Positions 1 through 63,914 of a stretch of DNA of 63,914 nt are shown piece after piece. Positions within the stretch are counted from its first letter, which is position 1. Every line of letters begins with the position of its first letter. Origin of the DNA: Rhina ancylostomus (lineage: Eukaryota); assembly GCA_030265395.1 (NCBI GenBank), contig JARFYF010000094.1:68166280-68230193 (forward strand), read 5' to 3'. The translations under genes were made by a program, and so were the position numbers. Under the pieces are notes generated by a model. It was not told where the DNA came from and made no database searches. It was given only the letters and a program-made list of their open reading frames with translations.

Positions 1-1529
1 AATCTTATCCAAGTTGCATCCAGCACTCCCGACTCTGATTACTCATTATTCTCAACTCTGTTGATAGATCTTCAGAGATTTATTTTCTATTCTTTCTCTC
101 CCTGGCTTGGCACCTAGTTGCAGAGCACTGTGAAATGCTTGACTGAAATAATATTATGTCAAGATGAGTATGTTACACAGATTACAGACTCTGCATAAAT
201 CTCTATGTCACCTCACTGTATTGGGAGAATTCAAAAATATTCATAAAGTTGCAAATTATATCTGTTTTTTTTGCTAACAGTTTATAACAGAAAAATTCTT
301 GTTTAACCAAACGTCAAATCTTACTATGACAGATATTAAAGTGAGCAGAGCCAATGTTTTGCTGAATGTAAAACTGTGAGAATAAAACATTAGCTGATAC
401 AGTTAATGCTTGTACTAAAATGCACATATTTATTTCAACCAGTTCTGTGGCTGTATGATTGAAATAAAATTCCATAGCTTAAAACAACCCCTAAAAGTCA
501 TTTGTGTTCAATAACATTGTTTGCAGGGATTTTTAACCGTGCAGTGATGGCTCACTATAGTAGACACCAGCAATCAAATAGAAGTTTGCAGACAGCAAAC
601 TGATTGAACTTAATTCTCTAAGTGGTTATGGAATTCATGGCCCACAGGTGACCCAATTTTTCTAATAAATACGATATCATCTAATGGAAAAAATTCTCAA
701 CTTAGACCACTTAATAGCACTGGTGATTTGTGACAGTAATAGAGCAACACAATAAATTGCAGCAAGGCTCATTATTTGAAGAAGTTTCATGCTGTAATTG
801 ACTCTTGACTGAATTGTTTGTAAACTCAATATTCCTGCACATGTGTGACATTTCTTTAATTAGCCAACAATCAATACCTATCCTAGAAAATCAGCCAGTG
901 AGGTTGAGAAAGAGGGTGAATCTGGATACATTTCCACATTTTTGTTCAATATATTTTACATGAACTTCTATGAATTTGATCTTTATCATTTGGTTAATTT
1001 TATAAAATTGTTATGCTCCTTTTTGCTATTTTTAATGTTAATTAGGATTCTATCTTGTTTAATTACCAGATCATCCCAGGAATGAGCTATTGAGCCACAG
1101 TGAGTGTTTGCTTGGTTTATGTTCATGAGGAAGAATGGAGATCAAAATTAATGCCTTTCCTAAAGTACATTCAATTAATCTCACTCTTCTGAAGGTAGGT
1201 GTTTTCTGATTGTTTTACACTGGGTATATCTTCACTTATTTTCCCACTCACCTATTTGTTATGGTTTCATAAGTNNNNNNNNNNCTACATGGCCATGCCC
1301 AAGTTAGCCTCCCAGTCGAGGTTCACCCAAGGCCCCAATTTGACCTCATCCATAAACAAAACAAGCACAATGAGAATCTTGGTGATTTTGCCCTTTTATC
1401 CCTTCTTAACCAAAAAACAGAGAGCCTAATTCCAAAGGCACCCACAGAAGTGTCCAGTAAAGAGGTGATAGCAAGAATAGCGCCATGCCATCCACCTACA
1501 ATTGATGCCCAAACAATAAGGAGTGGAGT

Positions 1530-1878
1530 GTGGGTGGCAGAGTGGTCCTGGTAGTAAGCCACTGTCCTACAGCTCCAGTGACCTGAGTTTAATCTTAACC
1601 CCTGTTGCTGTCTGTGGGGAGTTTGCACATTCTTCCTGCTACTGCATGGGTTTCCTATGGGTACTGTGATCTCCTCCCACATCCCAGAAATATGCATGTT
1701 GGTAGGTTAATTGGCTGCTGTAAATTGTCCCTAGTGAATGTAGTGGTAGAAACTAAAGGGAGTTATTGGGAATGCAGGGAGAATAAAACTGGAAGTAGTG
1801 GAAATGTGTGCTTGATTGTCTGCATGGTTACAGAGGGCCAAAGGGCCTGTTTGTGTTCTCTATGACTCTATGATTCTA
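1530..1878 (+). mobile_element. tRNA-derived V-SINE (HE1-like) with CR1-type 3' tail
   Basis: A/B-box-like head, V-domain-like gtggggagtttgcacattct...gggtttcct...ctcccacatccc, tail gggccaaagggcctgttt...tatgactctatgattcta shared with CR1 3' ends in this window. Confidence 0.75.
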
Positions 1879-2734
1879 ATATATGCCTTTGTCTACATCT
1901 TTTAGCCCTTGTAGGTATTTCTAATGGCAGTAATTCAACTTAGTTTTATGTTACAAGGTTTTAAAGTTTCTTTGTCTGCAGTATTTTTGCATCATTTTAT
2001 CCACTGGTCCTTTTTTAATTGGGGGGGGTGGTTAACAGTGATATTGTTCTCAGGTTTAACATTTCAAGACTAACCCCAGGAATGAACTTTTGCTTGTTGT
2101 TAGCCAGAGTGTATATGCACTCCAGCTGGAATATTTATAACAATCCCAGAGGTTAAACATAAAGCTCTTAATTTAATTATAGCCCCAAAATTATACTACA
2201 AATTTCAGCATTTAGTTGTACACAGTGGAATAAACATAATAAGCTTGTAATATCCTCTTCCAGAACTGAAGCTGTACATAGATTCAAAATTTCTCACCAG
2301 TTCAGCAGATCTTGGATGGTTCTGTCAAAAGTTGTGTCTTTACAGTCCAACAGCTATTAGAAATAACCTCTATTGCTAATTAACTATCTGTTACTATGGC
2401 AATACTTTCTTCATTTACATTAATCATTCAACCAATTAGTTAAGGTGCAAATGAGAAAACATGAAATCTTTGCACTTGGAATAAAAGTCCAATCAATTTG
2501 CTCCAAAACAGGCTGATATATAATTTGTAAAGTCAAATCTGCTCATTTAAATGATCCTTAAAATGAATGTCTAAAATGAACACCGTGGCTGCATTCTGTC
2601 ACTCCAGTGGCTGCTGGGTTAAGTCTCAGATGTTGTTAAATACCCTTAACACTAGAGTAATGGTGTGACAGGATATGCAAATAAGTATGACCAACAAATA
2701 AAACAGAATAAAAACATATGACAATCCTCCCAGA

Positions 2735-5700
2735 CATATTTTTGATATGGGAGGACATAACAGCAGTACTTTGAGATGAAATTCTTGGGAGATCGTCCCG
2801 TGAGGCCATATGGGTAGAACTCAGAAACAACAAAGGGTGGGTCACCCTAGTGGGGCTGTGTATTTATATAATAGATATATAATTAGCTGTATACATAACT
2901 CCAATAGTCAGCAGGAACCTGAGGAGCAGGTGTGCAGAGAAATTGCTCATAGTTGTAAGAATAATAGGGTTGTATTAACGGGAGATTTCAATTTCCCCGG
3001 TATTGACTGGACTATCCAGAGTGTTAGGGCCTGGACAAGGTAGAACTTGTTAAATGTATCTAGGAAAGTTTCCTATGTCAATATATAGAGGGCCTACTCG
3101 GGAGGGTGCAATACTGGACCTCCTCTTAGGGAATGAGGCAGGGCAAGTTACTTAAGTGGCAGTCAGGGAGCACTTTTGCTCTAGTGACTATAGTTCTATT
3201 AGTTTTAAGATAGTGATGGAAAAGGATAGGACAGAGACTGGACCAGGGCTAATTTTGGGGGAATTAGGCAGGATCTGGCAGAGATCAACTGGATGAGCTG
3301 GTCCGAAGGGAAAGGAACGAACAGCAAGTGGGAGGCTTTCAAGAGTGTGTAATCAAGAGTCCAGGAGCAGTGTGTTCCTGTTAGGATGAAGGGTAAACTT
3401 GGCAAGTTTAGGGAACCTTGGTTGACGAAAGATATTGAGACTCTGGGTCAAGAAAAAGGAGGAAGCATATATTGGGTTTAGGGGGTTGAGTATGAATGAA
3501 TTCCTTGATGACCATAAAAAGATTAAGAATATTCTTAAGAGGGAAATCAGGAGGGCAAAGAGGATATAAGATGGATGTGGCAGGTAGGGTTACGGAAAAT
3601 CCCAAGAGGTTCTATAGTCATATTAAGAGTAAAAGGGTGGCCAGGGAGAGAGTAGATCTCCTTAGAGATCAGCAGGGTCGCCTATGTATCGAAGCCACAG
3701 GAGATGGGTGGGATTTTTAATGAATACTTCTCCTCTGTGTTTACTGAGGAGAAAATCGTTGCTGCTCAGGAACAAGGGAAACTAGTGGTGATGCTTTGGA
3801 GGATATTTATATCACCAGGGAGGATGTATTTGGAGCATTACAGCACATTAAGGTGGATAAATCCCCAGGGCCTGACTGAGTGCATCCTCAGACTTTGTGG
3901 GAGGCAAGAGAAGAAATTGTGGAAGTCCTTGTGGAGATATTTGCTTCATCATTAGCCACTGGTGAAGTTCCTGGAGATTGGAAGGTGGCTATTGTTGTGC
4001 TGTTGTTTGAGGAGGGTAGAAATGACAAACCAGGGAATTACAGGCCAGTCAGTCTGACATCAGCAGTGGGGAAGTTACTGAAGGGAATTCTGAAGGACAG
4101 AATCTACCAGCATTTGGATCCAGTCTGATTAGGAAGAGTCAGCATGGCTTTGTGTGTGGAAAGTCACACTTGATGAACTGTTTAGAGTTTTTTGAAGAGG
4201 TAACCATAAAGGTAGATGAGGGTAGGGCAGTGGATGTTGCCTTTTGGATTTTAGCAAGGCCTTTCTGGTCCAACATGGTAGACTGGTTTGGAAGGTTAAG
4301 TTCCATGGAATCCACAGAGAGCTAGTTAGGTGGATTCAAAATTGGCTCTGAAATAGGAAGCAGAGGGCGGTGGTTGAAGGCTGTTTCTTGGATTGGAGGC
4401 CAGTGACAAGTGGCGTGCCGCAAAGGTCGGCGTTGGGACCTGTGTCATTTGTTAGTTATATAAATGATTTGGATGCACAAGGCTTGATCAGTAAGTTTGT
4501 GGATGACATGAAATTAGGAGGTGTTGTTGATAGTGAAGAAGGTTATCGTAGATTACNNNNNNNNNNNNNNNNNNNNNNNNNNNNNNNNNNNNNNNNNNNN
4601 NNNNNNNNNNNNNNNNNNNNNNNNNNNNNNNNNNNNNNNNNNNNNNNNNNNNNNNNTTAGGTCCCATGGAATCCGGGGAGGGCTAGTTCGATGGATTCCA
4701 AATTGGGTTGGAGGTAGGAAGCAGAGGGTGGTGATTGAGGGTTGTTTCTCAGAAAAGAGACCAGTGACTAGTGGTGTGCCACAGGAATCAGTGTTGGGAC
4801 CCTTACTATTCGATACTTATATAAATGATTTGGATGCAAATGCACAAGGCTTGATCAGTAAGTTTGTGGATGACACGAAGTTAGGAGGTGGTGTGATAGT
4901 GAAGAAAGTTATCGTAGATTGCAGTGTTTTCTTGATCAGTTAGGGAAGTGGGCTGAGGAGTGACAAATGGATTTCAATACAGATAAATGTGAGGTTATGC
5001 CTTTTGAAAGTGAAACCAGTGTAGGGCTTACACTATGAATGGTAGAGTACCAGGGAGTAATAATGGAACTGAGGGACCTAACAGTACAAGTCAAAGTTCG
5101 CTGAAAACGGTGTCACAGGTAGACAGGGTAGTGAAAAAGGCATTTAGCACGCTGGCCTTCATCAGTCAGGGTACTGAGTATAGGAGTTGGGACATTATGT
5201 TGCAGTTGCATAAGTTATTGGAGTACTGTGTACAGATTTGGTCACCCTGTCATAGGAAAGATATGGTTAAACTGGAAAGAGTGCAGAAAATATTTATGAG
5301 GATGTTGCCAGGACTAGAGGGCCTGAGTTATAGGGAAAGGTTGGCCAGGTGAGGTCTTTATTCCTTGCAGCATCGGAAAATGAGGGGTGACCTTATAGAA
5401 ATGTTTAAAATTATGAGGGGCATAGATGAGGTTGATGGTAACAGTCTTTTCCTCAGGGTAGGGGAGTCCAAAATGGGGGGGAATAGATTTAAGGTGAGAG
5501 GGGAAAGATTTAAAAGGGACTTGAGGGGCAACTTTTTCATGCAGAGGGTGATGAGTATATGGAACAAGCTGCTCAAGGAAGTGGTTGAGAAAGATACAAT
5601 AGTTTCATTTAAGAAGCACTTGAATAGGTGCATGGAGGGGCAGGGCTTAGATATGGGCCGAACACAGGAAATTGGGATTAGCTGAGTGGGCACTGTGGTC

Positions 5701-5759
5701 AGCCTGGACTCAATGGGCTGAAGGGGTTGTATCCGTGCTGTATTGCTCTATGACTCTAT
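2735..5759 (+). mobile_element. CR1 LINE, near-complete but decayed ORF2 (APE endonuclease + RT) with 3' UTR
   Basis: Frameshifted fragments: GDFNFPGIDW (APE), PGNYRPVSLTS, SGVPQ.S.LGP, SKFVDD.KLGG, KLERVQ, RGDLIEMFKIM, RGNFFMQRV. Ends in tgctctatgactcta. Contains an assembly gap at 4557-4656. Confidence 0.93.
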
Positions 5760-7422
5760 ATCAAAGATATATAAATCAGACAATTTTAGGCAAAATCATA
5801 AATTAAACAATGGATGGACTCTCACGATATTTGAAAGTGCCAGTAGTACCCTGATCATGGTCCAGCCTATTTAAAATACAACATTGGTTAATTCACCAGA
5901 AATAAATAAAACCAATGGTCAGTTAATAATGTCTAGATATCAAAAAAATCAGGCCAATCTGACATTTTTAACAGAGATTATCAGTAACTGAAGCCTCAAT
6001 AAGTTTTAATGCCACTTACTTTCAATTTGATCACAGACTTTATAAGTCATTACAATTTCCTCCCTCCAAATCATCTTTATTTCTCATGCACAAAAGAATT
6101 AAAATACACTAGAAGTTGAAGAATTATTTGAATTCATCTAAATGTAATGGTTGCTATTAGCAGAGAATGGAAAACATCAATGATATTTCCCAATAATTTT
6201 GCTCAATCACAAGAAGATGCTGTCTGACCTGTAGCATTTTGTGTGTGTTTCTTCACTCTTTGACACCCTGCTAAATATCCCCATTTGGTGCTGTGTTCAA
6301 ACATATAAACCAGAAAGATTTGATAATTGCTTCCTAGTGAAGTTTAAGTAATCTCAAAGGGAATGGAAATGAAGAGTGTTATAATTTATCTAAATTCATT
6401 TTAATTAAGAATTAAATACTGGAAACATTCATCAAGTCCGGCAGTAAATGTTATGAAGGAAAAAAAATGCTTCAGGTTTAGATTTGTCATGAATCTGTAA
6501 AAAAAAAATAAAGGGCTACCATTTCTAAAGAATAAAGAAATTTGTGGCAAAATAACCCTACAAAACAGATCAACATGAGCTTATTCAAGCTCTCTGAGGA
6601 AGCAGTTTCCTTCGGGACATGATGTGCAGGGGCACTTTGATTTAAGAACATGCACCGTGGGATTGAATTTTGAGGCTAAGTAGCTCTTTAGACCAAGTAA
6701 AAGAAAATTCAGGGGGACAGCAAATAATCAAAGTCCTGAATAGGGTAGAGGGAAGAACTGGTTAAATTATAATTGTGATCATGGGGTAATAGGCTCAGGA
6801 TGAAAGTTCTGAGGAATGGTTATTGACCTGAAATAGTCACCAGTTTTCTCCTCATGGATGTTATCTATTAACAGCCTTTTATTTTTGTTTCAGATTTCCA
6901 GCATCTGCCATATTTTATTTTTGAATAAACTAAATTAAGCATCAGCATTCACCACTTAAGTAGGATGCCAGATGATGTTGCTGGGAACTGGTCCAACCTG
7001 TACCATTGTTATTGTAATTTTTGGCATTGAAGAATACCACATCTTTTTAGCAACCATTTTATTTGCATACTATAACATATTTAGTTAATAATTGAGTCAG
7101 TGAGAATCAAGCAAGCAAAACTGTCGAAACTTAATCAATATATGGTTATGATTGCAAGCCTTTGTTTCATATTGTTCTATGTAATCATTATACATTTAAG
7201 AAAATGGTTACGAAGGAAGAGTAAATTATGTTACACAATGAACCATAGTGACCTTAAAAGGGAGTTGAGAAATGAAAGATTTCAATCATTTTATAACAGA
7301 GCTTTTTTATATCCAAACATGTGTTGAGTTAAGCTGGTACAGCCTATGTGACCATGTTCAATCTCTTTTGAAATCAAAGCATTTACCCAACCTTTACTTG
7401 CTTTCCCCATTGAAGATCTTAC

Positions 7423-7585
7423 CCTGCCAACAGGCTCCAACAGTTAGCTGCATATCAATGTGCGATGGGTGGATGGGCCAGTCATCTGTCACCAGGTACG
7501 GGTCATAAATCACTCCATCCACGTACAATGTTGCCACAGGAAACTCAACATTAATAACGTAATAATGCCATTCCTTGTCACAGAT
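7423..7585 (-). CDS. CLSTN2: Calsyntenin-2 coding exon (exon 9 equivalent), LNS domain
   Basis: 163 nt, ctttctccctttcag| ... |gtaaga. ICDKEWHYYVINVEFPVATLYVDGVIYDPYLVTDDWPIHPSHIDMQLTVGACWQG. Phase 0 join to the previous exon. Not in the ORF track. Confidence 0.96.
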
Positions 7586-7659
7586 CTGAAAGGGAGAAAG
7601 ACTCCAGCTTTATTTCATGTCAAAGCACAGTTGAACTTTTGTTTTGCAGAAGATCAACA

Positions 7660-10130
7660 AGTAACATGATTGTAAATACAGAAAATGACAGCGATATCAG
7701 CAGGCCAGGCAGCACCTTTGGAGTGAGGAATAGTTAATACTTCAGGTTGATGATCCATCATCAGAACTGAAAAAGCGAGAATCAAGCACGTTTTATGTTG
7801 CAGTAAGAGGAAAGGGTGAAGAGAACCAAGGGAATGTATGTGACAGGATGGAGACCAAGTTTGTTGAAGTGACACATTTGCTTTCAGTGCCATCCGAGAG
7901 AGGGATATCAATGCTTATCAATCATAGTTGATCTGGAGGGGTGCAAATAGGAGATGAATAAGAGCAATAGAAAAAGAAAGAAATGCTCAAACTGTGAGAT
8001 GCAGAATGCAACAGTTGCTGGAAATCTGAAAGTAAAGAGAATGCTGGAAATACCCAGTGGATCAGGTAGCATCTGTGGAGGGAGAAAAACCAAGCTGTTA
8101 TGGTTGAATGATGTTACATCAGAACTGGCCAGTTCTGACATAAACTGGAAAGACTGGTTATCTGAAATATTTGCATTCTATATTGGATCCCAATGGCTGC
8201 AACATGCCTAGATGGAAGATGAAGTGTTGTTCTTCAAGTTTATTTTGGGCATCATTGGAAATAGTGTAGGGAGTCAAAGTATGGGAGTGGAATGGAGAAG
8301 TAAGGCATCATGTGACTGGAAGCTTAGGATCACCCTTGTGAACTGAACAGAGATGTTCTGCAAAGTGATTGCCCAACTTGCAGTTGGTTCCACCACATCA
8401 TGAACACACTAAATTGGAAGATGTGCAAAGAAGCGGCTGCTTCACCTGGAAGGATTGCTTGAGTCCTAAGAACGTGAAAGAAAGATGTGAACAGGCAGGT
8501 ATTGCATCTTCTGTGGTTGAATGGGAGAAGGGAACCATTTGGTGGAGATACATGATTAAACTGGGGAATTGTGAATGATACAGTCCCTTTGGAATACTGG
8601 AATGGGTGGGGGTGGGAGAGGTATCTGGTGGTGGAATCTCATCGAGGTTGCACTATTTATTTATTTTGTAATTTATAATAATGTTATGTCTTTTCACTGT
8701 ACTAGCTGCCACAAAACAACAAATCTCACGACATACAAGTCAGTGAATAATAAACCTAATTCTAATTCTGATCCTGATAATCTGTGGAACGTGGAGGCTG
8801 GTGGTTGCAACACGAGGATAAGAAAACCATATCCATGGTCTGACTGGGAGACAGCGAGAGCAAAGGTCTGGTAAATAGAGGGGATGTGATTGAGAACTCC
8901 CTCAACTATAGTGGAGGGGCAAGAGTAAGGAAGATAAGCAGTTCTGAGGAAAGTCATCATCAGAACAGATAAGAGAGAGGAACTGGGAGAATGGAATTGA
9001 ATCCTTTTGGCAGCAGGGTGGAAGGAAGTGCAAGTGCGATAACTGTGGAAGTCTATGGGTTTAGAATAGTTACTGGTTGCTAAAATATCCTGTAAGATGG
9101 AGGTAGGGGAGTCAAGAAAGAGTCAGATGTAGATCACATGAAAAATGGGAACAAGGTCAGAACTGACAGCAAAAATGATGTACAAGTGCAGGAAGCAGCA
9201 GCAACACAATCAATAATACACCAGAAAAACAGTTGTTTCAGAACTATTCCATGTATATCACAAGGAGGCAATTGTAGCTTCGGTCTACGTGAATTTCCGT
9301 TGTTACATCAGTGACTTGTGGAGAGTCAGTGGGGTTAAAGGAAAACTTGTTCAATGCAAGAACAAATTCAGCTAGGAGTTTAGTGGTGGAGGGTAACTGA
9401 CTGGGCCCAGTTCAAAAAGGTGAAAGGTCATCAATCCATCCTAGAAATGCAGAGGATGAAGGTGAGCTGTCCAGGAACAGTGATGGGAAGTATCAGAGAA
9501 GACTGGGATGCTAGTGGGAAGGGACTGAATAAGGGGAGGTAAGGTGGAAAGAAATAAGTTTAGTGGGAGAAGAGCAGGCTGAAACAATGGGTCGTCCAGG
9601 ACAGTCCTACTTGTGGATCATGCAACAACTTATGCAGGGTTAGGGGGCTATGATGCTGGATGTTATGGAGGGAAGATATCCTGAGGAAATGAAATCCAGT
9701 TTTTTTCTCTCTCCACAGATGCTCCCTGACTTGCTGAGTATTTCCAGCATTCTCTTTCATTTCAGATTTCCAGAAATTCTGCTTTCTGTACCTAGGTTCC
9801 AGCAATGTTTTTTTTCCCCACTACTGCCCTCATTCATCCTTCTCATTTACATTCCTCCAGAAAGATGAGCTACAATCAACAGGTATTGATTTCCCTCTCA
9901 AAGATTACACTAGAACAGCTGTATCATCTGGACAACTTTGGTCTCTGCCCTATCACAGTCATTCCCTTTGTTCTTCCTACCTTCCTTCTCCTCTCTGCAG
10001 CTCTAAGGTCATTGATCTGAAATGTTTATTGTTTTTCTCTCTCACAGATGCTGCCTGACCTGATGATTTTTTTCCAGCATTCGCTGTTTTCATTTCAGAT
10101 TTCCTACATATGCAGTTTTTGCCTTTCCAG
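7660..10130 (-). mobile_element. Degraded Penelope-like retroelement (RT + GIY-YIG) with inverted terminal pLTR blocks
   Basis: Minus-strand translation at about 9200-9380 gives LAEFVLALNKFSFN...SYNCLLVIYME (PLE RT region). At about 8180-8455 it gives SFQVKQPLLCTSSNLV...LGNHFAEHLCSV...PKLPV...AQNKLEEQHFIFHLGMLQPLGSNIE (PLE GIY-YIG C-terminus). 7670-8140 is roughly the reverse complement of 9690-10130. Confidence 0.8.
8648..8778 (+). mobile_element. Short LINE 3' tail (Rex1/Babar-like, tentative) inserted in the Penelope element
   Basis: gctgccacaaaacaacaaatctcacgacata...aataaacc followed by short tandem repeats (taattc/tgatcc). Interrupts the PLE body. Confidence 0.45.
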
Positions 10131-35308: not shown

Positions 35309-35500
35309 CCTGGAATGCGTTGCCTGATAGGGTGGTGGAGGCAAATTCATTGGGGGCTTTTAAGAGGGGCTTGGATGAGCACATGAATGAGGGGAAAATG
35401 GAGGGATATGGGCATTCTGTAGGTAGGAGGGATTAGCCATGTTGGCACAATATTGTGGGCTGAAGGGTCTGTTCTGTGCTGCACTGTTCTATGTTCTATG
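35305..35500 (+). mobile_element. CR1 3' end
   Basis: NAWNALPDRVVEANSLGAFKRGLDEHM plus 3' UTR ending ttctatgttctatg. Confidence 0.88.
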
Positions 35501-39047: not shown

Positions 39048-39215
39048 TAGGGTGGTGGAGGCAAATTCATTGGGGGCTTTTAAGAGGGGCTTGGATGAGC
39101 ACATGAATGAGAGGAAAATGGAGGGATCTGGGCATGCTGTAGGCAGGAGGGATTAGCAATGTTGTCACAACATTGTGGGCCAAAGGGTCTGTTCTGTGCT
39201 GTACTGTTCTATGTT
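39048..39215 (+). mobile_element. CR1 3' end, near-identical to 35328-35495
   Basis: RVVEANSLGAFKRGLDEHM plus 3' UTR. Starts directly after the gap. Confidence 0.88.
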
Positions 39216-39348
39216 GTTTCAGGTCAATGGTCTTTCATTAGAACTGGTAAATGTCCTGATAAAAGATCACTGACCTGAAACATCAGTTCTGTTTCTCTGT
39301 CCATTGTTGCTGCCTGAGCTGCTGAGCAGTGTTTTCTATTTTCATTTC
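39215..39348. repeat. Right half of the Penelope-derived hairpin insertion
   Basis: tgtttcaggtcaatggtctttcattagaactgg...tgacctgaaacatcagttctgtttctc...gctgcctgagctgctgag, followed by accaatt (39349-39355). Confidence 0.75.
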
Positions 39349-40634
39349 ACCAATTTGGTAAGCTAATGAGAGCTTTGCAGGTATTACTGGGCTTGTGATT
39401 TAACTGCCTTTCTGTAATGCACAAATATGTTGTGCAAGGAAAAGAATTTCTAAGCCCTTGATTTTAGCTTCCTGTGGGTAAGGATGGGGGAGGGGGAAGC
39501 TTTGGTGAAGCAGATAAACTGGAAACCAAAAGGTGCTTACTTCTTGGATCCATCAATTCCTAAACTGCCAGGTGGCCAGTGTTAAGTTTAAATTATTGGT
39601 TAATTCTATGTTACATAATCTTCTGCACTATTATTTAATTCTGCTTCCTGCCAGTGAGCACCATCCCTTCATCTCCTCTGTTAAATCCAGACATGGGAAT
39701 GATGCTGTCAGGTTTTAAACATATAGCATCACATCCTATCTTACCCCAATCTACCCAGTTTTGGGCTCCGATATTTCAGTTGACCTAATCAACACTGTTC
39801 CGATGATATGTCTTTGACCTGAAATGTTAAATCTGCTCCCCTCCCCACAGATGCTAGCTGACCAGCTGAGTGCTTCTATCTATTTCTCGTTTTATTTTAA
39901 ATTTTGGGCATCTGCACCTCTTTGCTTTAAAATGTCAACTCTTTTCATAATCCTGAAATGCTTAAAAATGCAAGTGTCTGCAACACACATTGGCATTCCA
40001 ATGTAGCACACAGCCAAGACATTTGTGTAAATGTACCTGATACAATATGCTTATGCCGTCTGTTCTCTGTGTCAAAGAGTCTCAAACACATATCTAACAC
40101 TGACATAGGAGGCATTTTCTACTGCAGAATGCCACTGCAATTTATACAAGAACATGCTGATTTATTCTCTTCTGTGACAATTCAAATTTACAGATGACAT
40201 GATAATCCTAATTGATTGCATTCCATGTCATTGGACCCCTTCTCACATAGGATATTAATGGCATTAAATGATACCCACTAAGATAGGTCACAATGGCAAA
40301 GCTGCCTGATTGCCTACTAGTTGTGTGATAGAGCTCGTTAGCTGGAAGGATAAATGCTGCAGGACAGTATTGATAAGATACCAGCAGATTGCCATTAGTC
40401 CAGGAAAAGCTGTAGAGACGCTGTGGCTGTTCCTGTGTTCTCAGCACTCTATTCCTTTCATTGTTTGTGGGTTCAGTGCTAAATTCTCATGATAACAAAG
40501 CCCTATTATTTGATGCCATTGCTCTTGCTGTTTAAATCCTGACATTGTAATGGTATGCAACACCATCACTTATAATTGACACATTTTTTTAAAAACGGGA
40601 ACATTGGTAATATGAAGCAAATATGTTTGTTTTG

Positions 40635-40952
40635 AAATAACAACAGAAAATGCTAGAGATACTCAATTGGTCAGGCAGCATCTGTGAAGACAGGAGCAGA
40701 TAATGTTTCAGGTCAACAATGTTTCATCAGAATTAGAAAAATGAGTATACAAATATCTTCAAGTTGCAATGAAGGGAGGTGTCAACAGAACAAAGGGAAC
40801 GTCTGTGACAAGCTGGAGACAAAGATTGTCTGGATGAATCAATTGCTCTCAGTCCTATCTGGTTAATCTTGGCATAGGCTAGCCTGCGGATGATCTCCAG
40901 CATTTTTTTATTTCATATTTCCAGCATCTGCAGGTTTTTTTGTTGCTTTTCA
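40635..40952. repeat. Penelope-derived inverted-repeat element
   Basis: acagaaaatgctagagatactc...tcaggcagcatctgtg and the inverted arm ctccagcatttttt...tttccagcatctgcag. Confidence 0.7.
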
Positions 40953-46339: not shown

Positions 46340-46812
46340 AAGAGCACAAAGGAGACTTACGACAATGTTGCTGGGACATGAGGGACTGAGTTATGGAGGG
46401 AGGTTGAGCAGGTTTGGACTTTATTCATTGGAACATAAGAAAATGAGGGGTGATCTTATGGAGCTGTATAAAATCATGAAGGGCATAGATAGCATGGATG
46501 CACTCAGTCTTTTCCCCAGGGTTGTGGAATCAAGAACTTGATGGCATAGGTTCAAGGAGAGAGAAGAGAGATTTAATAGGAACCTGTGGGACAAATTTTT
46601 CATCCAGAGGATGGTCAGTATATGGAATAAGCTGCCAGAGGAAGTAGTTGAGGCAGGTGCGTTAACAGCATTTGAAAGGCACTTGGACAGGTATGAGGAT
46701 AGGAAAGGTTTAGAGGGATATGGGCCAAATGAGGGCAAATGGGACTAGCTCAGATAGGAATCTTGGTTGGCAGGGACCGATTGGGCCAAATGACCTTTTT
46801 CTATGCTGTATG
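46340..46812 (+). mobile_element. CR1 3' fragment, inserted next to an older LINE tail at about 46110-46335
   Basis: EGLSYGGRLSRFGLYSLEHKKMRGDLMELYKIMKG, plus 3' UTR. Confidence 0.88.
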
Positions 46813-47395: not shown

Positions 47396-47527
47396 TCCCA
47401 TTTGCTGTGGGATGCTGAGATGGGACAGAAGACATGGTCTTAAAGTTTTACAAAACAAGAGACATCTTACTTAAATTATTAAAAATGAGGTGCAAAATTA
47501 AACCAATTTTATTCTGTTGGAACTCAC

Positions 47528-47736: not shown

Positions 47737-49223
47737 CTGGAAACAGATGACATCATTAGTGCTCCATAAATAGACAATATACCTACTAACAAAAATATTA
47801 TTATGATGTGTCTATCATCTATATAGATAAAATAAATGTACAGGAAGATTTGACAAGAGTCTTTAGTAAGAAAATTGAGACAATGCAAAATCTTTATGAA
47901 GCATTTGTTTCCAGACAATTACAAGAAAATGACATCTGAAGGGATAGGATAATTCAAAAAACAAGAAATACTCTTTGTGGCAATAAGTATTAAGGCAAAG
48001 GTCCGCTCTGGTGAGGTTATTAAACACTTTGGAGCAAAACTCTGAGAGGAAGCAGGGTTAGGATATGTTCCCTCTTCAGAGCACATATTTCTCTTTGCAA
48101 TTGTTTATGTTAAGTATTCCAATTTGTTTTACACCTCCACTAACTACCATCAATGAAATTAGCAGACTCTAAGCAGAATGGAGAAACCTGGCAAATGAAG
48201 ATCGAATGAACATTTCAAGCTTTATTCCAGATCATGAAAGAATTTTATGGTGGCTATCAATTAATGATGCCACAGGCTCACAGAATTATCCACATCTGTT
48301 AGTTGAAAAATTGTAAGTAATTATCGATCTTAACATTGTTTTATGTTATGTGGTGTGCTTGTTAGAAATAGCTGCCAGACTTGGCTTGACACAGTTAAGG
48401 AATGGATGAAACAGAAAGTGTTGAAATCACTGAGCAGGCTACTCATCACCTGTGGAGAGAACGGGTAACTGAGCCTCAGCTGAGATATTACCTTTGCAGT
48501 GATAAATCTGCCTCATCTACGCACATCATATTAGCCCTCTCACACTGGTGAGTTCAATCATTCCTCCAGAGCAAATACATCATTATGTACATTAAAGAGG
48601 GGCAAAATACGGCTTATTTTTGTTTACAATGAGCATTGATTATCCATTTAATATTTTATGGATGCAAACTGTTTTCCATCGATAGACTTACAGCTCCTGA
48701 CTGCAAGTGAATCTATATTCTTAAGTCTGAAATTTTAATTACTGTAAACTATTCAATGTCTTTCTAAACTAAATGTTGACACATATCACTTTACATTGAT
48801 GTCCTTGAACAGCGCTGATCATTATTCTATAACCAATGGGTGTAAAATGAGCTGTGAATTTAACATCGCCCATTTGGCACAACCACTGAACTTGAATTTC
48901 ACTTAAGGTTTACAGAATATCATTTGAGATCAAAAATATTTGGCATTGATATTTCACAGATTAAAAAAAGGACATNNNNNNNNNNNNNNNNNNNNNNNNN
49001 NNNNNNNNNNNNNNNNNNNNNNNNNNNNNNNNNNNNNNNNNNNNNNNNNNNNNNNNNNNNNNNNNNNNNNNNNNNAAAGGACATATGTCCACTGCAAGAT
49101 TGTAAAGTTCAACTGAAAATTGGCGACATTTCCAAGCCATTTCCTAACAGTATATTCCATGTCTCAATGTGCACTCTCAGAAGTAACAACTAAGCCTAAC
49201 TAAATCAGGGGCAAGTTACTCAC

Positions 49224-49419
49224 TTGTGTGATTTTTTCCAATAAGTTCCACTCGGCCTGGCTCCACAGTCATATGCCTGAATGATGAATGTGTATTCTTT
49301 CTGAAGCTCACAGTCGATTGGACTTTTTGCCTGCAGCAAACCTTCCCCAGATGTCTTGTTTAACACCACAGCTTCGAAGGGCACATCCTGACTGTGGATC
49401 TTGAAAGCACAGATCTCAC
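49224..49419 (-). CDS. CLSTN2: Calsyntenin-2 coding exon (equivalent to human exon 3), cadherin repeat 1
   Basis: 196 nt between ttttgttccag| and |gtgagt. Translates GEICAFKIHSQDVPFEAVVLNKTSGEGLLQAKSPIDCELQKEYTFIIQAYDCGARPSGTYWKKSHK, matching the recalled CLSTN2 sequence GEICAFKIHGQELPFEAVVLNKTSGEG... Not in the ORF track; found by manual translation. Confidence 0.96.
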
Positions 49420-49844
49420 CTGGAACAAAAGTTATACATCAGTGTGTAAACTGTGCAGTATAAATATAAGCACAAAAAATGAGTGCTTTTGCCAGAACTG
49501 AGTTAGCTACTCAGGACTGATTTACAGCTATGCCACTTGGCCATATTAGTCATTTGTTTTCAAACAGGTAGAAATTAATTGAGAGTTTACCCAAGTTTGT
49601 TTAATGAGATGTCAATGACTGCAAATGATCATTTCATAAGAACAAGGCATTTTGCCAGTTTGCCAATGGGTTGCACTTGAACTGGAGGGGCACCAATATT
49701 CTAGCAGGGATATTTGCTTTTGCCACCAGGGAGGGTTTAAACTAGATTGGCAGGAGGGCGGGACTCAAGAGAGTGAAGTCAGTGAGAAGACAGGGGTACG
49801 TGCAGCAACCAGAGAGTGCAAGCCTAGCAATCGAGATAGCCATG

Positions 49845-50429: not shown

Positions 50430-52939
50430 CCATGTTTACAGTAAAAGGGCAAATATGACAACTGCCTTAAATTGCATGTATTTTAATGCATGTAGCTTAA
50501 CAGGTAAGGCAGACGAACTGAGGCAGTGGATTGCCTCTAGGGATGGGATATTGTGGCCATAACAGAAACGTGGTGGGGAGAAGGGCAGGACTGGCAACTC
50601 AATGTTCTGGGATACCAATGATTTCGGTGTGATAGAGGAACAGGTAAGAATTGATGAGGTGTTGCCTTTTCGGTAAGAGGGGATGCAACAGCAGTGCTTT
50701 GAGAGGATATTCTTGAGGGATCATCTGGTGAGCCTAATTGGGTAGAACTTAGAAATAAGAAGTGGATGCTCACCTTTGTAGGGCTATGTTATAGTCAACA
50801 AAAACTTGAGGAACAGATGTGTTGAGAAATTGCACGTAGTTGTGAGAANNNNNNNNNNNNNNNNNNNNNNNNNNNNNNNNNNNNNNNNNNNNNNNNNNNN
50901 NNNNNNNNNNNNNNNNNNNNNNNNNNNNNNNNNNNNNNNNNNNNNNNNNNNNNNNNNNNNNNNNNNNNNNNNNNNNNNNNNNNNNNNNNNNNNNNNNNNN
51001 NNNNNNNNNNNNNNNNNNNNNNNNNNNNNNNNNNNNNNNNNNNNNNNNNNNNNNNNNNNNNNNNNNNNNNNNNNNNNNNNNNNNNNNNNNNNNNNNNNNN
51101 NNNNNNNNNNNNNNNNNNNNNNNNNNNNNNNNNNNNNNNNNNNNNNNNNNNNNNNNNNNNNNNNNNNNNNNNNNNNNNNNNNNNNNNNNNNNNNNNNNNN
51201 NNNNNNNNNNNNNNNNNNNNNNNNNNNNNNNNNNNNNNNNNNNNNNNNNNNNNNNNNNNNNNNNNNNNNNNNNNNNNNNNNNNNNNNNNNNNNNNNNNNN
51301 NNNNNNNNNNNNNNNNNNNNNNNNNNNNNNNNNNNNNNNNNNNNNNNNNNNNNNNNNNNNNNNNNNNNNNNNNNNNNNNNNNNNNNNNNNNNNNNAGATG
51401 TGTTGAGAAATTGCACGTAGTTGTGAGAATAGTAGGATCGTGTTTGTTGGAGATTTCAATTTTCCCAGTATTGACCCAGCCACCCGGAGTACAAAGGGGC
51501 TGGATGTGGTGGAATTTGTGTGGTGTGCCCAAGATAGTTTCCTCACACAATATATAGAGGAACCTACTCAGGAAGGAGTAATACAGGATCTCATCTTAGG
51601 GATTGTGGTGGGCCAAATAACTGAAGTGGCAGTTGGGAGCACTTTGTCTCCAGTGACCCCAATTCTATTAGTTTTAAAATAGTTATGGAAAAAAAATAGA
51701 ACAGGTCCACAGGTTGAAGTCCTGAACTGGAGCATGGCCAACTTTGAGGGCATTAGGCAGGATCTAACCGGGGTTGGCTGGGTGACTCTACTTGAAGGCA
51801 GAGGAACAGTTTGAACAGCAAGTGAGAGGCTTTTAAAAGGGTCATATCAAGAGTCCAGGGGCAGCATGTTCCTGCTACGGTGAAGGGTAGAAATACCAAG
51901 TTCAGGAAACCTTGGCTGAAGAGAGATATCAAAGCTCTCGCCAGAAAAAAGAAGGAAACGTATATTGTGTTTAGGCAGATGGGTTCCAATGAATTCGTCG
52001 ATGAATATAAGAAGTTTAAGCCCAGACTTAAGAGGGAAATCAGGAGGGCAAAAAGAGGGAATGAGATGGATTTGGCAAGCAGGGTTAAGGATCATTCCAA
52101 GAGGTTCTTCAGTTATATTAACAGTTAAAAGGGTGACTAGGGAGAGACTAGATTCTCTTAAAGACATCAGGGCTGTCAATGTGTGGTGCAGGAGGAGATA
52201 GCCAAAATTTTTAATGTTTATTTCGCCTCGGTGTTTACGAAGGAGAATATAATGGATGCCAGAAAAATGTGGGTAATAAGTAGTGAGGTTTTGGATCATA
52301 TGCATATTGCAAGGAAGGAGATATTTGTAGCCTTGAAATGCATTAAGATGGACAAATCCTCAGGGCCTGATCAAGTGCACCCCCAGACATTATGGTAGGC
52401 CAGCGAAGAAATAGCAGAGGCCCTTGTAGAGATATTTGCTTCGTCGTTAGCCACTGGTGAAGTCCCAGAAGAAGAGTGGTTAATGTTGTTCTATTGTTCA
52501 AAAAGGGTAGCAAGGAATGGTCAATAAGCCTGACTTCAGTTGCAGGGAAGTCACTGGTGGGAATTCTGAGGGACAAGATCTACCATCACTTGGATAGTCA
52601 AGGCCTGATCAGGAATAGTCAGCATGGTATTGTGCATGGGAGGTCATGTCTGATGAATCTTTTGGAATTTTTCTGAAGAGGTAACAAAAGGGACTGATGA
52701 AGATAGGGTAGTGGATGTTGTCTATATGGACATTAGTAAGGCTGTTGACAAGGTCCTGAATGACAGGCTGATCTGGAAGGTTAGGTCACATGGGATTCAG
52801 GGGGAGCTAGTAGGGTGGATTCAGAACTGGCTCAATGATAGGAAGCAGAGGTTGACGGTCGAAGGTCAATTCTCCGACTGGATGCCTGTGACTAGTGGGG
52901 TGCCTCAGGGGCCAGTGATGGGACCTCTGTTATTCATTA

Positions 52940-53884
52940 AGAACATAAATAAGGGCAGGAGTTGGCCAAATGGCCCGTCGAGCCTGCTCCACCATTCATT
53001 AAGATCATGGCTGATCTGGTCATGGACTCAGCTCCACTTACCTGCCTTTTCCCCATAACCCTTAATTCCCCTACTATGCAAAATTTTAATTGTAACTTAA
53101 ATGTATTTAATGAGGTAGCCCCCTCTGCTTCCACAGATTCCCACAAATTCACTGCGCTCTAGGAAAAGCAGTTCTTCCGCATCTCCTTCCTAAATCTACT
53201 CCCCCAAATCTTGAGGCTATGTCCCCTAGTTCTAGTCTCATCTACCAGTGGAAACAACTTCCCTGCCTCTATCTTATCTATCCTTTCATAATTTTATACG
53301 TTTCTATTCTCTCTCATTCTCCCGAATCCCAGTGAGTATGGTCCTAGGCAACTCATTCTCTCCTCATAGGCTAATCCCCTCATCTCCGGAATCAACCTGG
53401 TGAACCTCCTCTGCACTGCCTCCAAAACCAGTATATCCTTCCTCNNNNNNNNNNNNNNNNNNNNNNNNNNNNNNNNNNNNNNNNNNNNNNNNNNNNNNNN
53501 NNNNNNNNNNNNNNNNNNNNNNNNNNNNNNNNNNNNNNNNNNNNNNNNNNNNNNNNNNNNNNNNNNNNNNNNNNNNNNNNNNNNNNNNNNNNNNNNNNNN
53601 NNNNNNNNNNNNNNNNNNNNNNNNNNNNNNNNNNNNNNNNNNNNNNNNNNNNNNNNNNNNNNNNNNNNNNNNNNNNNNNNNNNNTCTTCTATTTTTCCTT
53701 CCAAAGTGGATGACCTCGCATTTACCAACATTGTACTCCATCTGCCAGACCCTTGCCCACTTACTTAACCTATCTATATCTCTCTGCAGACTCTGCATCC
53801 TATGCACAATCTACTTTTCCACTCAGTTTAGTGTCATCAGTAAACTTAGATACTCTACACTCAGTTTGCTCTTCCAAATCATTA
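52940..53884 (-). mobile_element. 5'-truncated CR1 (different subfamily) nested antisense in the host CR1
   Basis: Minus: NDLEEQTECRVSKFTDDTKLSG...LQRDIDRLSKWARVWQMEYNVGKCEVIHFGRKN...LEAVQRRFTRLIPEMRGL. Tail ttatgttct. TSD atta at 52936-52939 and 53885-53888. Confidence 0.9.
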
Positions 53885-55796
53885 ATTATTTATGTAAATG
53901 ATTTGGACATGAATGTGCATGGCATGATTAGCAAGTTTGCTGATGATACTGAATTAGGGGTCGTATTGATAGTGAAGCAGGTTACAATGAATTTCAAAGA
54001 GATCTTGATCAATTAGGGAGATGGGCTGAGGAATGGCAAATGGATTTCAACTTAGATAAGTGAGAGGTGATGCATTTTGGACAGTCAAACAAGGTAGGAC
54101 TTGTACAGTGAATGGCAGGGTACTGAAGAGGGGCCCGGGAGTAGAAGTGCATAGTTCGCTAAAAGCAGCTGCGCAAGTAGACAGGGTGGTGAAGAAGGCG
54201 TTTAGCATGTTGGCCTTCATCAGGCAGGGCATCGAGTTTAGAAGTAGGGACATTGTGTAGCAGTTATAAAAATTGTTGGTGAGGCTGCACTTGGGAGTAT
54301 TCAGTACAGTTTTTGTCATCCTGTTATAGGGAAGACATTGTCAAGTTGGAGATGGTGCAGAAGAGATTTACAAGGATGCTGCCTGGACGAGAGGGCCTAA
54401 GTTATAGGGAGAGGTTGGCCATGTTGGATCTTTATTCCTTGGAGCTAAGAAGAATGAGGGGTAACCTCAAAGAAGTTTATAAAATCATGAGGGGCATGGA
54501 TAAAGTGGACGGTCGTAGTTGTTTCCCCAGGGTTGAGGAGTCCATTACTAGAGGGTACAGATACAAGATAAGAGGGAAGAGATTTAAAAGTGACCATGGG
54601 TCACTCCTTTACATGGAGGGTAGTGAGTACCTTCGAATGGGCTGCCAGAAGAAGTGATCAAGGTGGCTACAATTGCAACAATTAAGAGGCATTTGAATAG
54701 GCACGTGGAGGGGAGGGGCTTGGAGGGTTATGGGCTGAACACCAGCAACTGGGACTAGCAGAGAGAATGCTGTGGTCAGCATGGAGCAGTTGGGCTGAAG
54801 GGCCTGTTTCTGTGCTGTATTACTCTGTGACTCTATTTTTATACAATTCTGAATTTTGACAAAACAATCCCCAAATTTCTCCCCATCCCCCACCCTCCAA
54901 TACACATCTAATTGCTTTGTAAATATGTTAATTTTAATTAAATAAGGTTTAGGTGCAAAAGTAAATGGGAGTGAATGTACTAAAGTTTGGAATTCTGCCA
55001 TGAATGTATCAGACCAAAAATGCTAACAAGCTGCAAACTTAATGTCAGATTACTATGACTCAATGACTTTCATTCAGGTACCATTGTAAATACATCTCAG
55101 TACTCCGAAATTCTCCTGTGTTCAGTTGTTGTGAGTGGTAGTTTGACCTTATCAGCATTGTTTGTTAAAACTGCTCACACAGGATATGCTTGAGATACCA
55201 CAGATATGTTTGCTCTTCACCAAAACTGTGATTGGATCTTTATCCCATTTATCTCAATGTGCCTTTTGGAGATGCTTGTTATTGTCTGGACTGGACTCCT
55301 TTTGTTCTCTCAGCCTGGAGAGAATATTAGGATTAGTCAAGCTGCCTGCAATGACAGCTGCGTTTTTCATTCAACTTTACAGCTGAAGTTTGCTGTTTTC
55401 ATCTCCATCACGTACCATTGTCACAGAAAAGCTCAGAAATGAAGAAGTCATGCAATTCAAGAAAACACCTGCATTTTCTGCTTTTTGTCTAAACAACAAA
55501 TGGGGGAAAAGTTAAAATAGCATTACTACACCATTATAAGTATTGAAAGCCAAAGATGATGTTTATTACTGTTTTTATTTACCACCAGAATTAATGCAAT
55601 GCTTACATCTGGATTAACCACGAGTCACATATGGCAGGTGATTAATGCATCAATATGTGGCATCGACCCAAATAACCAAACACCTGCAAAATATTTAGCG
55701 TTAGAAAGAGTAGTCTGCATCACTAACAACCTGTATATACCAACAGTTCAAATGATCCTTCCTAGCTACAGAATCAACTTATTTTGTTTCCTTTCC

Positions 55797-55833
55797 AGTT
55801 CTGATGAAGGATCTTCGGCCTGAAACATTAACT
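55797..55833 (+). ncRNA. Minimal type-I hammerhead ribozyme-like motif in a Penelope-derived repeat (55790-55930)
   Basis: agtt-CTGATGA-agg..cct-GAAA-catt-aact: stem I agtt/aact, conserved core, stem II, and a stem III palindrome carrying CpG decay. Confidence 0.6.
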
Positions 55834-56044
55834 CTGTTTCTCTTTCCACAGATGGTGCCTGACCTGCTGAGTGGCTCTAGCATTTTCTGTTTTTATTTCT
55901 GATTTCCAGCATCTGTAGTATTTTGATTTTCATGGAATCAAACTTGCTTTAATTTAGTTCTGAACGGTGTTACGGCACATTCTGGCACTATATTTTGAAT
56001 CTTCACAAGGAAGGATAAGCTTTAAACTTATTTTTTTTAAATAT

Positions 56045-56082
56045 GATCCTGATGAAGGGTCTCAGCCTGAAATGTCAACTGT
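56045..56082 (+). ncRNA. Minimal hammerhead-like motif in a Penelope-derived repeat (56045-56142)
   Basis: CTGATGA(56049)-agggtctcagcct-GAAA-tGTC: core, stem II agg/cct, and GTC cleavage triplet. Confidence 0.55.
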
Positions 56083-57169
56083 TCATTCCCCTCCATAGAT
56101 GCTGCCTGACCTGCTGAGTTCCTCAAGAATTTTGTGTGTGTTACTTTTTTAAATATTCATTCATTTTTCTGGATGTGATCAAGACTAGAGTTTATTATCC
56201 ATTCCAAATTCCCCTTGAGAAGATGGTGGTAAGCCACTGCAGTCCATCTAGTGAAGGTACTCCACAATAGTGTTCGGGAGTTAGTTCCAGGATGGTGTAC
56301 AACAATGGAGGGAAACCTGCAGGTGGTGGTGGTGTTCCCATGTGTCTGCTACACTTGCTCTTCATGGTTTACAGGTTTTGTGCTTGGAAGCTGTTGTTGG
56401 TCTAGACCAGATGAGTAACTGCAGAAATAATTGAAAGTGATTTGGATAGTAATCTGAAATATAGTTTGCAGCTTGTTAGCATTTTTGGTTCTGACCTCCA
56501 ATTCCTCACAAAGCCTCTTTGTGTCAACTTAAAAATCACAGAGACCATCAATCAAAGCATGAAATTTAGACATGGCAAAATTACCTTGCAAAGCCGTCAC
56601 ATGAATGTGTCATGGGTGTGAAAAGAGGACTTTGCCTCTACACAGATAACGCAGTGGCTATTCCTACCAATACTGTCTTGGGCAGTATATTTAGATGCAT
56701 CTACCACGGTGGATTGGTGAGGACAAGGTCAAGCAGGGGCTGGTGGGTGAATATTTGACTCCAAATTAGGAAAGTTGTCCTATAATCTAGTCAAGCAACA
56801 GCCTGACAAAGTTACAATTATTGAACTGCACCTAATAGATAAAGTACCAATGACTCCATCACAAGCAACAAACAATCTGCTGGAGGAACTCAGCAGGTTG
56901 TGCAGCATCTGTGGGAGGAAAGAAATTGTCAACATTTCGGGCTGAAACTCTATCACAAGGTCTTGTCCCACCAACAGGACAGACTCATGAGATATGGTGG
57001 TCATACAGGCAGAATAGAGAGTCCTTTATATTAGGTTGGGACCTCATTAAGTCTCATAACATTGGATCAAACACTGGCAAAGAAACCTCCTCCTCAGTGC
57101 CACTACCATCCTCCTGTAGCTGATGAATCAGTGCTCCTCCATGCTAATATATCCCAACATGTTATCAAA

Positions 57170-62392: not shown

Positions 62393-62711
62393 TGTCACAA
62401 ACCATTACTGTCAGCTCAGTGCAGGTCACTTGGAACAAGTCCCAGCATTTTTGTAGCATGGTTGGCTTGTTTTTCTGCTTGATCAGGAGGTCAATTTTAA
62501 CCTAATCTGCCCATCAGCAAATGGACAAGACTGAATCCAACATTAGTTTTACAATCCATGAGATTTAACTACCCAATGAAGTTTTTTTCCACCCAAGCTT
62601 TTGATTCTCTTGCCCATCAATTTCAGTTAGTTACCCAAATATGACTTTCTTTCAAATATGCAGAAATACAGCAAAAATCTAAACAAGCATTGGGGTTCTG
62701 TGTTCTCATTG

Positions 62712-62748
62712 GGCTCTGATGAAAGGTCTGGGACCCGAAATGTTAACC
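62712..62748 (+). ncRNA. Minimal hammerhead-like motif in a Penelope-derived repeat
   Basis: ggct-CTGATGA-aaggtctgggaccc-GAAA-tgtt-aacc, with a ggtc/gacc stem II. Confidence 0.55.
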
Positions 62749-63914
62749 GTTTCACTTTCCACTGAATCTATCTGATGTGTTGAATGCTTCTAGCGTTGTC
62801 TGCTTTTATCCCTTATGTACAGCATCATTAGATTTTTTAAATGATTTTCATAAACAAACATTGAGGCTTAAAAGGGGGAAAAACTCAGGTCTCTTTTGGC
62901 ACACTGTAGAACAACAAACATTATTGGCATTGCTAAATCAGAGTATAAATTGCAAACACTGCATCACCCAATTAATTGCAGCAAAATGTCCATTTAGTCA
63001 TTAAATAATCTACCTAGAGAACAGAGGAAACTATTTACAGATAGTTTACTACACCACTAAAAGGGTAATTTTCCAGAACAAAAATACAGCGAGCAAAGGA
63101 CAGGTACAGATAAATTAGAGGCATAAAATCAATCTCAGTATCCTCCTGCAAATGTGGTCATAACCTTGATTGACAGGGGAATTACCCAATCCTTTCCAGT
63201 CTAACTAATCGTAGCATTTTCCCGCACAACATTCCTAAAGAGTAGGCCTGGCCAACTGGGATGTTCTCAGGTGACAGTACCTTCTGGTTTCAATTAATGA
63301 TGTATTTCTGTCATTTGTGGAGTTCCCATTCTCGTGAAATGATTCCAAGTACCAGATAATTTAAAACTTTTCTAACTGTTTGTCCCACACAATCTTTTGG
63401 TCTTTTGCTTCACCAGCAATTTGATGGCTATCAGAAGAGGAATGGACTGAGAACAAACACATTTATCAGTTATTAGGTTTTAGTAACTCTTTAAAAGATT
63501 TTTTAAAAATAGTCCAGATTATTTCTGAACCAATTACAGGTCATGGTTCAAAAGCTTTAGATACACCCAATGATTTGGGAGTCAAATGCCANNNNNNNNN
63601 NNNNNNNNNNNNNNNNNNNNNNNNNNNNNNNNNNNNNNNNNNNNNNNNNNNNNNNNNNNNNNNNNNNNNNNNNNNNNNNNNNNNNNNNNNNGAAATAGCA
63701 TGGCAGCAGGAAAATCAACAGGGAACCCTGGATGAGGAGGGTGCTGGGTGTGGAGGGGAACATGTGGGGGAAAGAGGAAGAAAGGAAACAAAACTCCAGT
63801 CACGAAGGATTACAGTTCCTGCTCAATGAATCCCACTAAACATGCATCTATTATCATGGGTATATTCAGCTTCGAAATATGTAATTACTGAGGTTGTTAG
63901 TCACTTAGTAGAAT

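Follow-up and report, generated by a model that had tools for sequence, protein, structure and literature searches.

The window, meaning the whole stretch of 63,914 nucleotides of Rhina ancylostomus DNA analysed here (contig JARFYF010000094.1), carries part of CLSTN2. An exon at 47520–47750 matches calsyntenin-2, best in stingray (94 %) with sharks next, a match that marks the genome as ray-like, and coding exon 3 was placed on the minus strand by tblastn of stingray calsyntenin-2. Intron 2, of approximately 115 kb, extends from 49421 to the end of the window and beyond, with coding exon 2 lying approximately 100 kb past the window end and coding exon 1 further out. Three plus-strand hammerhead cores, at 55801, 56049, and 62716, are therefore in intron 2 and antisense to the pre-mRNA, as the initial annotation of this DNA had proposed. 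Within CLSTN2, copies of the repeat to which they belong favour neither strand, 35 being antisense and 29 sense (p=0.53). The features are as follows.

6795–6921, plus strand: strongly decayed copy of the repeat (6809 copy), by HMM.
39215–39349, no strand assigned: decayed copies in a head-to-head inverted pair, including the 39256 copy, by HMM.
39790–39928, plus strand: decayed copy (39800 copy) with a mutated core, by HMM.
40632–40744, minus strand: copy with intact core letters (C3 at 40730) and broken stems, sense to CLSTN2, by pattern and HMM.
49223–49420, minus strand: CLSTN2 coding exon 3, by tblastn.
55787–55929, plus strand: copy 1, a Penelope-like terminal repeat of a more diverged subfamily (stem I U-A type, U17) in the long-tail form, by HMM match and tail cluster (1 of 6).
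55796–55834, plus strand: copy 1 hammerhead (core 55801–55807, stem II 55809–55821, GAAA 55822–55825).
55930–56032, no strand: spacer, unique and outside the repeat unit of the element, on single-copy evidence.
56033–56044, plus strand: left-hand member of a pair of 12-bp AT-rich direct repeats around copy 2, probably its duplicated target site, by flank comparison.
56047–56144, plus strand: copy 2, a terminal repeat of a younger subfamily (stem I C-G type, C17) in the short-tail form, 5′-truncated inside stem I, by HMM and tail clusters.
Within copy 2, plus strand: copy 2 hammerhead (core 56049–56055, stem II 56057–56068, GAAA 56069–56072, putative cut after C56076).
56145–56156, plus strand: right copy of the 12-bp direct repeat, by flank comparison.
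62708–62842, plus strand: third copy (core 62716), with an A.C mismatch at the base of stem II, 3/5 stem I pairs, TGT, and U17, by pattern and HMM.

A pattern scan for CTGATGA-N-stem II-GAAA-NNT-H recovers all three cores on the plus strand and the tandem spacing reported for the first two, whose C3 positions are 248 nt apart. Stem II and its loop occupy 13 nt at 55801 (then CAT, with H=T), 12 nt at 56049 (TGT, H=C), and 13 nt at 62716 (TGT, H=T). The bare pattern is barely above chance, with six matches in the window against a shuffle mean of 2.2, and 5 out of 100 shuffles reaching six. The motif is not a chance occurrence, because it is embedded in a repeat of approximately 140 nt, which has 23 copies in the window by profile HMM, and its genome matches stand against none in the control. 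Self-BLAST of the window is consistent with this being, as noticed before, its most abundant short repeat. Decayed copies do exist where they were earlier placed, at 6809, 39256, and 39800. Of the six copies listed in the initial annotation, said to read CAT or TGT after GAAA, five do so (CAT, TGT, TGT, CAT, and TGT), but the one at 6809 reads TAG. The minus-strand copy with an intact core at 40730 is absent from that list.

The short flanking stem I attributed to the copies has been lost in part at 56049. In copy 1, 4/5 stem I pairs can form, stem II has a G.U pair at its base and an A.C mismatch, and the CA after GAAA is non-palindromic, with the putative cut after U55829. In copy 2, the 5′ strand of stem I is gone, the first pair is C.A, and one contiguous pair is left. 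The copy 1 hammerhead is at most 90 % identical to other genomic copies, and copy 2 at most 96 %.

Copy number was estimated from forty evenly spaced 10-kb stretches on nine large contigs (347,186 non-N bases), in which the HMM found 53 copies scoring at least 30 and 67 in all. Extrapolation to 2.2 Gb gives approximately 290,000–370,000 copies (~3×10^5). A strict core-plus-stem-I pattern has 1054 genome matches against 0 in the reversed control. A looser pattern has 3179 (control 0), with the core canonical, by eye, in 57 of the first 100 listed; intact copies are thus less than 1 % of the estimated total. The genome is seeded with ribozyme-bearing Penelope derivatives, as had been suggested, most of them decayed.

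At the level of the family, the minimal type-I architecture that had been proposed, with a loop-less palindromic stem III, is what the majority sequences of the subfamilies form. Stem I has 3–5 bp, stem II 4–5 bp with one extra base before it, and stem III is a loop-less ACGU; the core is CUGANGA/GAAA/NUH, with G10.1-C11.1 and a palindromic 15.2-16.2. At positions 15.2/16.2, unselected copies of the younger type (n=23) have CA in 9, TG in 8, CG in 4, and TA in 2, and those of the older type (n=43) have TG in 14, CA in 13, TA in 7, CG in 3, and other letters in 6. This predominance of CA and TG is as CpG decay predicts and supports an ancestral GAAACGUH, the CAT and TGT forms having been attributed to deamination of GAAACGTH from the start.

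Clustering by the tail alone, of 186 out of 389 copies (those with core and tail covered, excluding pattern-selected ones), separated six groups, two with U-A as their first stem I pair and four with C-G, which is one compensatory change. Pair 2.1-1.1 is U-A in 55/75 and 11/21 copies of the tail-defined subfamilies, and C-G or its decay product C.A in 45/52 and 15/21. Stem II shows one one-sided change between subfamilies. As to the stem covariation on which the initial annotation had staked its reading, the tail-defined subfamilies differ by this one two-sided stem I change, and a formal covariation count over 19 hand-picked copies was not above shuffles (247/500). In the same 19 copies, 79 % of positions pair in the predicted register, against 15–49 % in slid registers. 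The Rfam scan suggested for the family (Hammerhead_1) misses the motif: there was no hammerhead match in the window at E≤5, nor at E≤10 in three loci with intact copies.

Conservation of the core and of the tail is nearly equal, at 87 % and 86 % in younger copies and 84 % (447/530) and 83 % in older copies, the core figure being lowered somewhat by subfamily variants. Core letters are intact in 3/23 younger and 5/43 older copies. The core is no better kept than the tail, and inserted copies therefore look neutral.

Variants at invariant core positions were counted by eye among the first 100 listed of the 3179 matches. A9 is C in 19 (T in 2, G in 2) and U4 is A in 11 (C in 8, G in 1). Core variants are found in tail clusters 3 and 6, at L219:3589 and L142:3757, and at 56959 on the minus strand of the window, the A9C form being at the 3′ end of a reverse transcriptase (RT)-bearing copy (L219). 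The amplification of A9C and U4A subfamilies suggests either that cleavage may be dispensable for transposition or that the variants are tolerated. Luense et al. (RNA Biol 14:1499; cited in PMC6765202) are said to have described Penelope-like element (PLE) hammerhead variants cleaving as dimers, and may already cover these changes. Neither A9C nor U4A is named in section 8 of PMC3088659.

Upstream of the hammerhead, longer copies have a UTR rich in pyrimidines and, beyond it, broken frames that encode a YIDD RT motif, a Cys linker, and GIY-YIG. Among 25 loci selected by RT, the repeat is 0.8–1.4 kb downstream of the RT match on the same strand in nine, and most of the remainder end in gaps or at the locus edge. 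Pfam gave nothing significant on the broken frames, and the long 'open frames' of a first protein search were runs of N. A genome search with an 871-aa homolog found L206 (contig C2762:1-3287), in which the end of a frame (1–636) is followed by UTR, a hammerhead at 929, the tail, and an open frame from an ATG at 1096 to the contig end. This frame has 730 uninterrupted codons, and its first ATG is approximately 165 nt downstream of the core. The two contig ends share 77 identical bp, therefore L206 is likely a collapsed tandem of a unit of approximately 3.2 kb, with the repeat between the stop of one RT and GIY-YIG frame and the start of the next. In Pfam, the frame matches RVT_1 at E=4.5e-5 and GIY-YIG at E=2.3e-4, neither reaching the curated cut-off, and the 871-aa protein to which it is 47 % identical (E=1e-168) passes both cut-offs. 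The L206 hammerhead has C7, U17, and U.G as first stem I pair; other genomic matches to L206 are at most 77–82 % identical.

On this sequence context, the repeat is identified as the terminal piece, made up of the hammerhead and a tail of approximately 95 or 128 nt, of a Penelope-like element with a Neptune-type linker, and the Penelope origin first suspected stands, since that strand also carries, upstream of the repeat, the RT, the Cys linker, and GIY-YIG. Before GIY-YIG, a linker C-x4-C-x2-C was read by eye in L206 and in broken copies. A CX2-5CxxC linker between RT and endonuclease is a Neptune/Nematis feature (PMC8557442), and marks the element as a probable Neptune or Nematis, the clade being assigned by this motif alone. 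A relative of the Penelope-like RT/GIY-YIG protein is annotated in zebra shark as an 'uncharacterized protein' (fragment). Its last C-terminal residues look like read-through into the same hammerhead repeat, and the family therefore extends to sharks, where it is annotated as a gene.

The ends of the copies bear on how they were made. Measured from C3, 3′ ends in 93 unselected copies scoring at least 40 are bimodal, at +87 to +104 and +118 to +132, and there are 13 head-to-head inverted pairs among 131 matches in 592 kb; both match PLE hallmarks given in PMC8557442 and PMC11167929. The 5′ ends showed no accumulation at the cleavage site: 4/66 older and 0/27 younger copies start within 4 nt of it (HMM ends being fuzzy). 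Copies retain sequence 5′ of the cut, and with no pile-up there the template was likely uncut RNA. Same-strand neighbours less than 400 nt apart number 8 pairs among 102 copies, against 2.4 expected under Poisson (p=0.003). The excess is approximately threefold, and placement is therefore not fully random.

A sequence of events may be proposed. In tandem arrays of the parent element, neighbouring hammerheads would, as the literature suggests, pair via the ACGU palindrome, perhaps aided by protein, and process the multimeric transcript. Reverse transcription of uncut RNA would begin at one of two sites, approximately 95 or 128 nt downstream of the core, by analogy with PMC11167929. It may often halt a few bases upstream of the core, giving the short copies that fill the genome, in which CpG deamination after insertion would convert ACGU to ACAU or AUGU and stems I and II would be weakened.

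Alternatively, the short copies could be a separate SINE-like non-autonomous element, transcribed from a point immediately 5′ of the hammerhead and moved by the protein of the Penelope-like element, rather than by-products of copying the parent RNA. Such an element would account for 13 out of 27 scored younger copies beginning within 8 nt upstream of C3, the other 14 continuing into the 3′ UTR (these 27 are the best matches to copy 2, possibly biased, with three registers adjusted by eye), and for upstream UTR homology being detectable in only 16/74 unselected copies. It is nonetheless improbable, as short and long copies have the same subfamily sequence and the 3′ ends are at two PLE-type sites rather than at an own terminus. 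Truncated copying of the parent RNA is the preferred explanation for the short copies.

Copies 1 and 2 are 75 % identical (72/96) and fall in different tail-defined clusters, and so in different subfamilies. Between them, 55936–56044 is unmatched among the loci examined, and 55925–56046 is covered by one single-depth contig (sequencing run X1). Copy 2, truncated at its 5′ end, begins two bases ahead of the core, and the 12-bp direct repeat borders it on both sides; only 1 in 380 shuffled flank pairs reaches 10 bp. None of 20 other short-scored copies has a flanking duplication of at least 8 bp, which weakens the target-site reading of the 12-bp repeat. The 5′ portion of copy 1 (up to 55844) occupies the same place in a contig of a related organism, whose contigs do not span the spacer. 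On subfamily, spacer, and flanks, copies 1 and 2 are likely to be independent insertions.

The initial annotation had the two copies placed so as to pair as a dimeric hammerhead in a transcript antisense to CLSTN2. This is not supported: they are of different subfamilies and look independent, only one of the two possible cores can be paired on paper, and its predicted fold is unfavourable. Close same-strand pairs are also common for the repeat (the 8 pairs above). With the core of copy 1 and the cut site of copy 2 (56076), the hybrid has 5/5 stem I pairs, 3/4 stem II pairs with a G.U at the base, and 4/4 stem III pairs, the last because ACAU and AUGU are reverse complements. The reciprocal core (56049 core, 55801 cut site) has 2/5 stem I pairs, and on paper there is thus at most one hybrid site, after 56076, and no double hammerhead.

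The hybrid fold is predicted by ViennaRNA to lie 12.6–14.2 kcal/mol above the ensemble in windows of approximately 300 nt and 26–27 kcal/mol above it in windows of 410–550 nt. Hybrid stem I alone costs 0.9–2.5 kcal/mol in short transcripts and has a pairing probability of approximately 4 % in 55780–56100. The hybrid energy is +1.1 kcal/mol, against −8.6 to −12.2 kcal/mol for homodimers of five younger-type copies with intact cores; the homodimer of one older-type intact-core copy is also at +1.2 kcal/mol. Forming their own stems I and II costs 10–13 kcal/mol in three window copies, compared with 0.6–2.2 kcal/mol in three pattern-selected intact copies. Likewise, a homodimer of 55801 has 2/4 stem III and 3/4 stem II pairs, so is neither self-complementary nor intact in its stems, and in 56049 the first pair of stem I is missing and stem III is held only by G.U pairs. 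These energies disregard tertiary contacts and proteins, and intact dimers are also 6–22 kcal/mol above free co-folding, therefore the energies rank the candidates rather than prove the outcome.

It is highly probable that the motifs are hammerhead-bearing ends derived from a Penelope-like retrotransposon whose linker is of Neptune type, and that the neighbouring copies, likely independent, are decaying neutrally, with self-cleavage predicted neither alone nor together. The contrary case is a split hammerhead, in which the core and stem II of copy 1 would cut after C56076 in a CLSTN2-antisense transcript, the opposite CpG decays of the two copies restoring a 4-bp stem III. Beyond the pairing described, it has in its favour that the cut site is a GUC triplet, that hybrid stem I is predicted to pair at low probability, and that the copy 1 hammerhead region is unchanged over 67 nt in the related organism; with 8/348 differences in the flank, approximately 1.5 changes would be expected there, so this constancy is not significant. 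Against it, Watson–Crick complementarity of stem III is expected in approximately 26 % of random older-by-younger pairs, and both the reciprocal core and the predicted energies are poor. Cleavage by intact minimal hammerheads is itself weak when they are tested as dimers in vitro (PMC4209133), or requires the protein of the element (PMC11167929). The CLSTN2 pre-mRNA, moreover, carries the reverse complement. That two dead retrotransposon ends of different ages have accidentally rebuilt a working split hammerhead, cutting the younger GUC site 248 nt away, is thus very improbable. Even less credible is the view that the pair represents a non-LTR retrozyme of two units, or a unit of approximately 248 nt duplicated in tandem, and has spread via circular RNA: the copies share a strand, and 248 nt is within the 51–972 bp range of animal retrozyme units (bioRxiv 10.64898/2026.07.22.740005), but they are 75 % identical and of different subfamilies, the spacer occurs once and does not recur beyond copy 2, and copy 2 has its own flanking duplication. 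Independent insertion remains the preferred origin of the pair.

This kind of element has already been published. The minimal hammerheads of metazoan PLE pseudo-LTRs (Cervera and De la Pena 2014, PMC4209133) are alike in being type I, with a stem I of 4–5 bp, one unpaired base before stem II, G10.1-C11.1, no loop 3, and a palindromic 15.2-16.2. They too are mostly dispersed single truncated copies, with several consensus families per genome and opposite-strand pairs. In contrast, stem II has 7–8 bp there and 4–5 bp here, and copy number including decayed copies is far above the 4,000–9,000 of coelacanth and Xenopus, whereas the intact-pattern counts (1054–3179) are of the same order as in those genomes. 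No cartilaginous fish is named in the part of that paper available, and its supplement may list shark motifs.

Neptune and Nematis, as endonuclease-bearing (EN+) PLEs (Craig et al. 2021, PMC8557442), share a single frame with RT and C-terminal GIY-YIG, the CX2-5CxxC linker, partial tandems, an inverted 5′-truncated partner, an optional tail of 30–40 nt, and a 3′ hammerhead. Here there are likewise an RT and GIY-YIG frame, a pseudo-LTR between frames, two 3′ ends, and inverted partners. Poseidon of the green anole (Frangieh et al. 2024, PMC11167929) is alike in having two reverse-transcription start sites approximately 100 nt downstream of the hammerhead, which give the tail, an uncut RNA template, and AT-rich targets. 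In Poseidon the ORF starts inside the hammerhead, whereas in L206 it starts well downstream of the core, and the Cys linker is present here. Animal non-LTR retrozymes (PMC7229834; bioRxiv 10.64898/2026.07.22.740005) also have type-I hammerheads from PLE pseudo-LTRs, dimer-active when tandem, but the pair in the window is not a tandem repeat of one unit. Hammerhead retrozymes are reported in one chondrichthyan in the latter source, whose supplement may list shark motifs. A search of the open literature found no paper describing this ray or shark hammerhead family, with Repbase, Dfam, supplements, and subscription journals outside its scope.

The family puts a ray genome among those of animals already known to carry many scattered Penelope hammerheads; almost every copy is a relic, and in that respect the finding matters little. 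Of more use, the uninterrupted tandem in L206 is a natural substrate for models of dimer or protein-assisted cleavage, and the subfamilies amplified with A9 to C and U4 to A changes raise the prospect that cleavage is unneeded for transposition. Were the hybrid to work, it would show a route by which decayed repeats give new self-cleaving RNAs, and with approximately 3×10^5 copies there would be accidental split ribozymes at many shark and ray loci.

Some further observations were made in the window. Pyrimidine tracts ending in CAG or TAG, like 3′ splice sites, are present at 55787–55798, 55835–55852, and 55885–55901 and in other genomic loci (L002–L030). One such tract stops two bases before the core, and copy 2 begins right after that AG position; in Drosophila Penelope, the end of an intron is reported at a comparable place before the core (PMC4209133). 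Another dispersed repeat, at 56157–56400, directly adjoins copy 2, has a depth in the hundreds, and has three weak matches among the loci examined. Copy 2 apparently landed in the T-rich end of this repeat. The repeat may resemble the end of a CR1-type LINE. Fragments on the kilobase scale of another reverse-transcriptase element, with approximately 72 % mutual identity, are at 2759–5759, 46352–46811, and 50687–54836. Finally, 35328–35495 is duplicated at 39048–39215 (168 bp, 94 % identity); an assembly gap lies directly to the left of the second copy, and the duplicate is possibly an assembly artefact.
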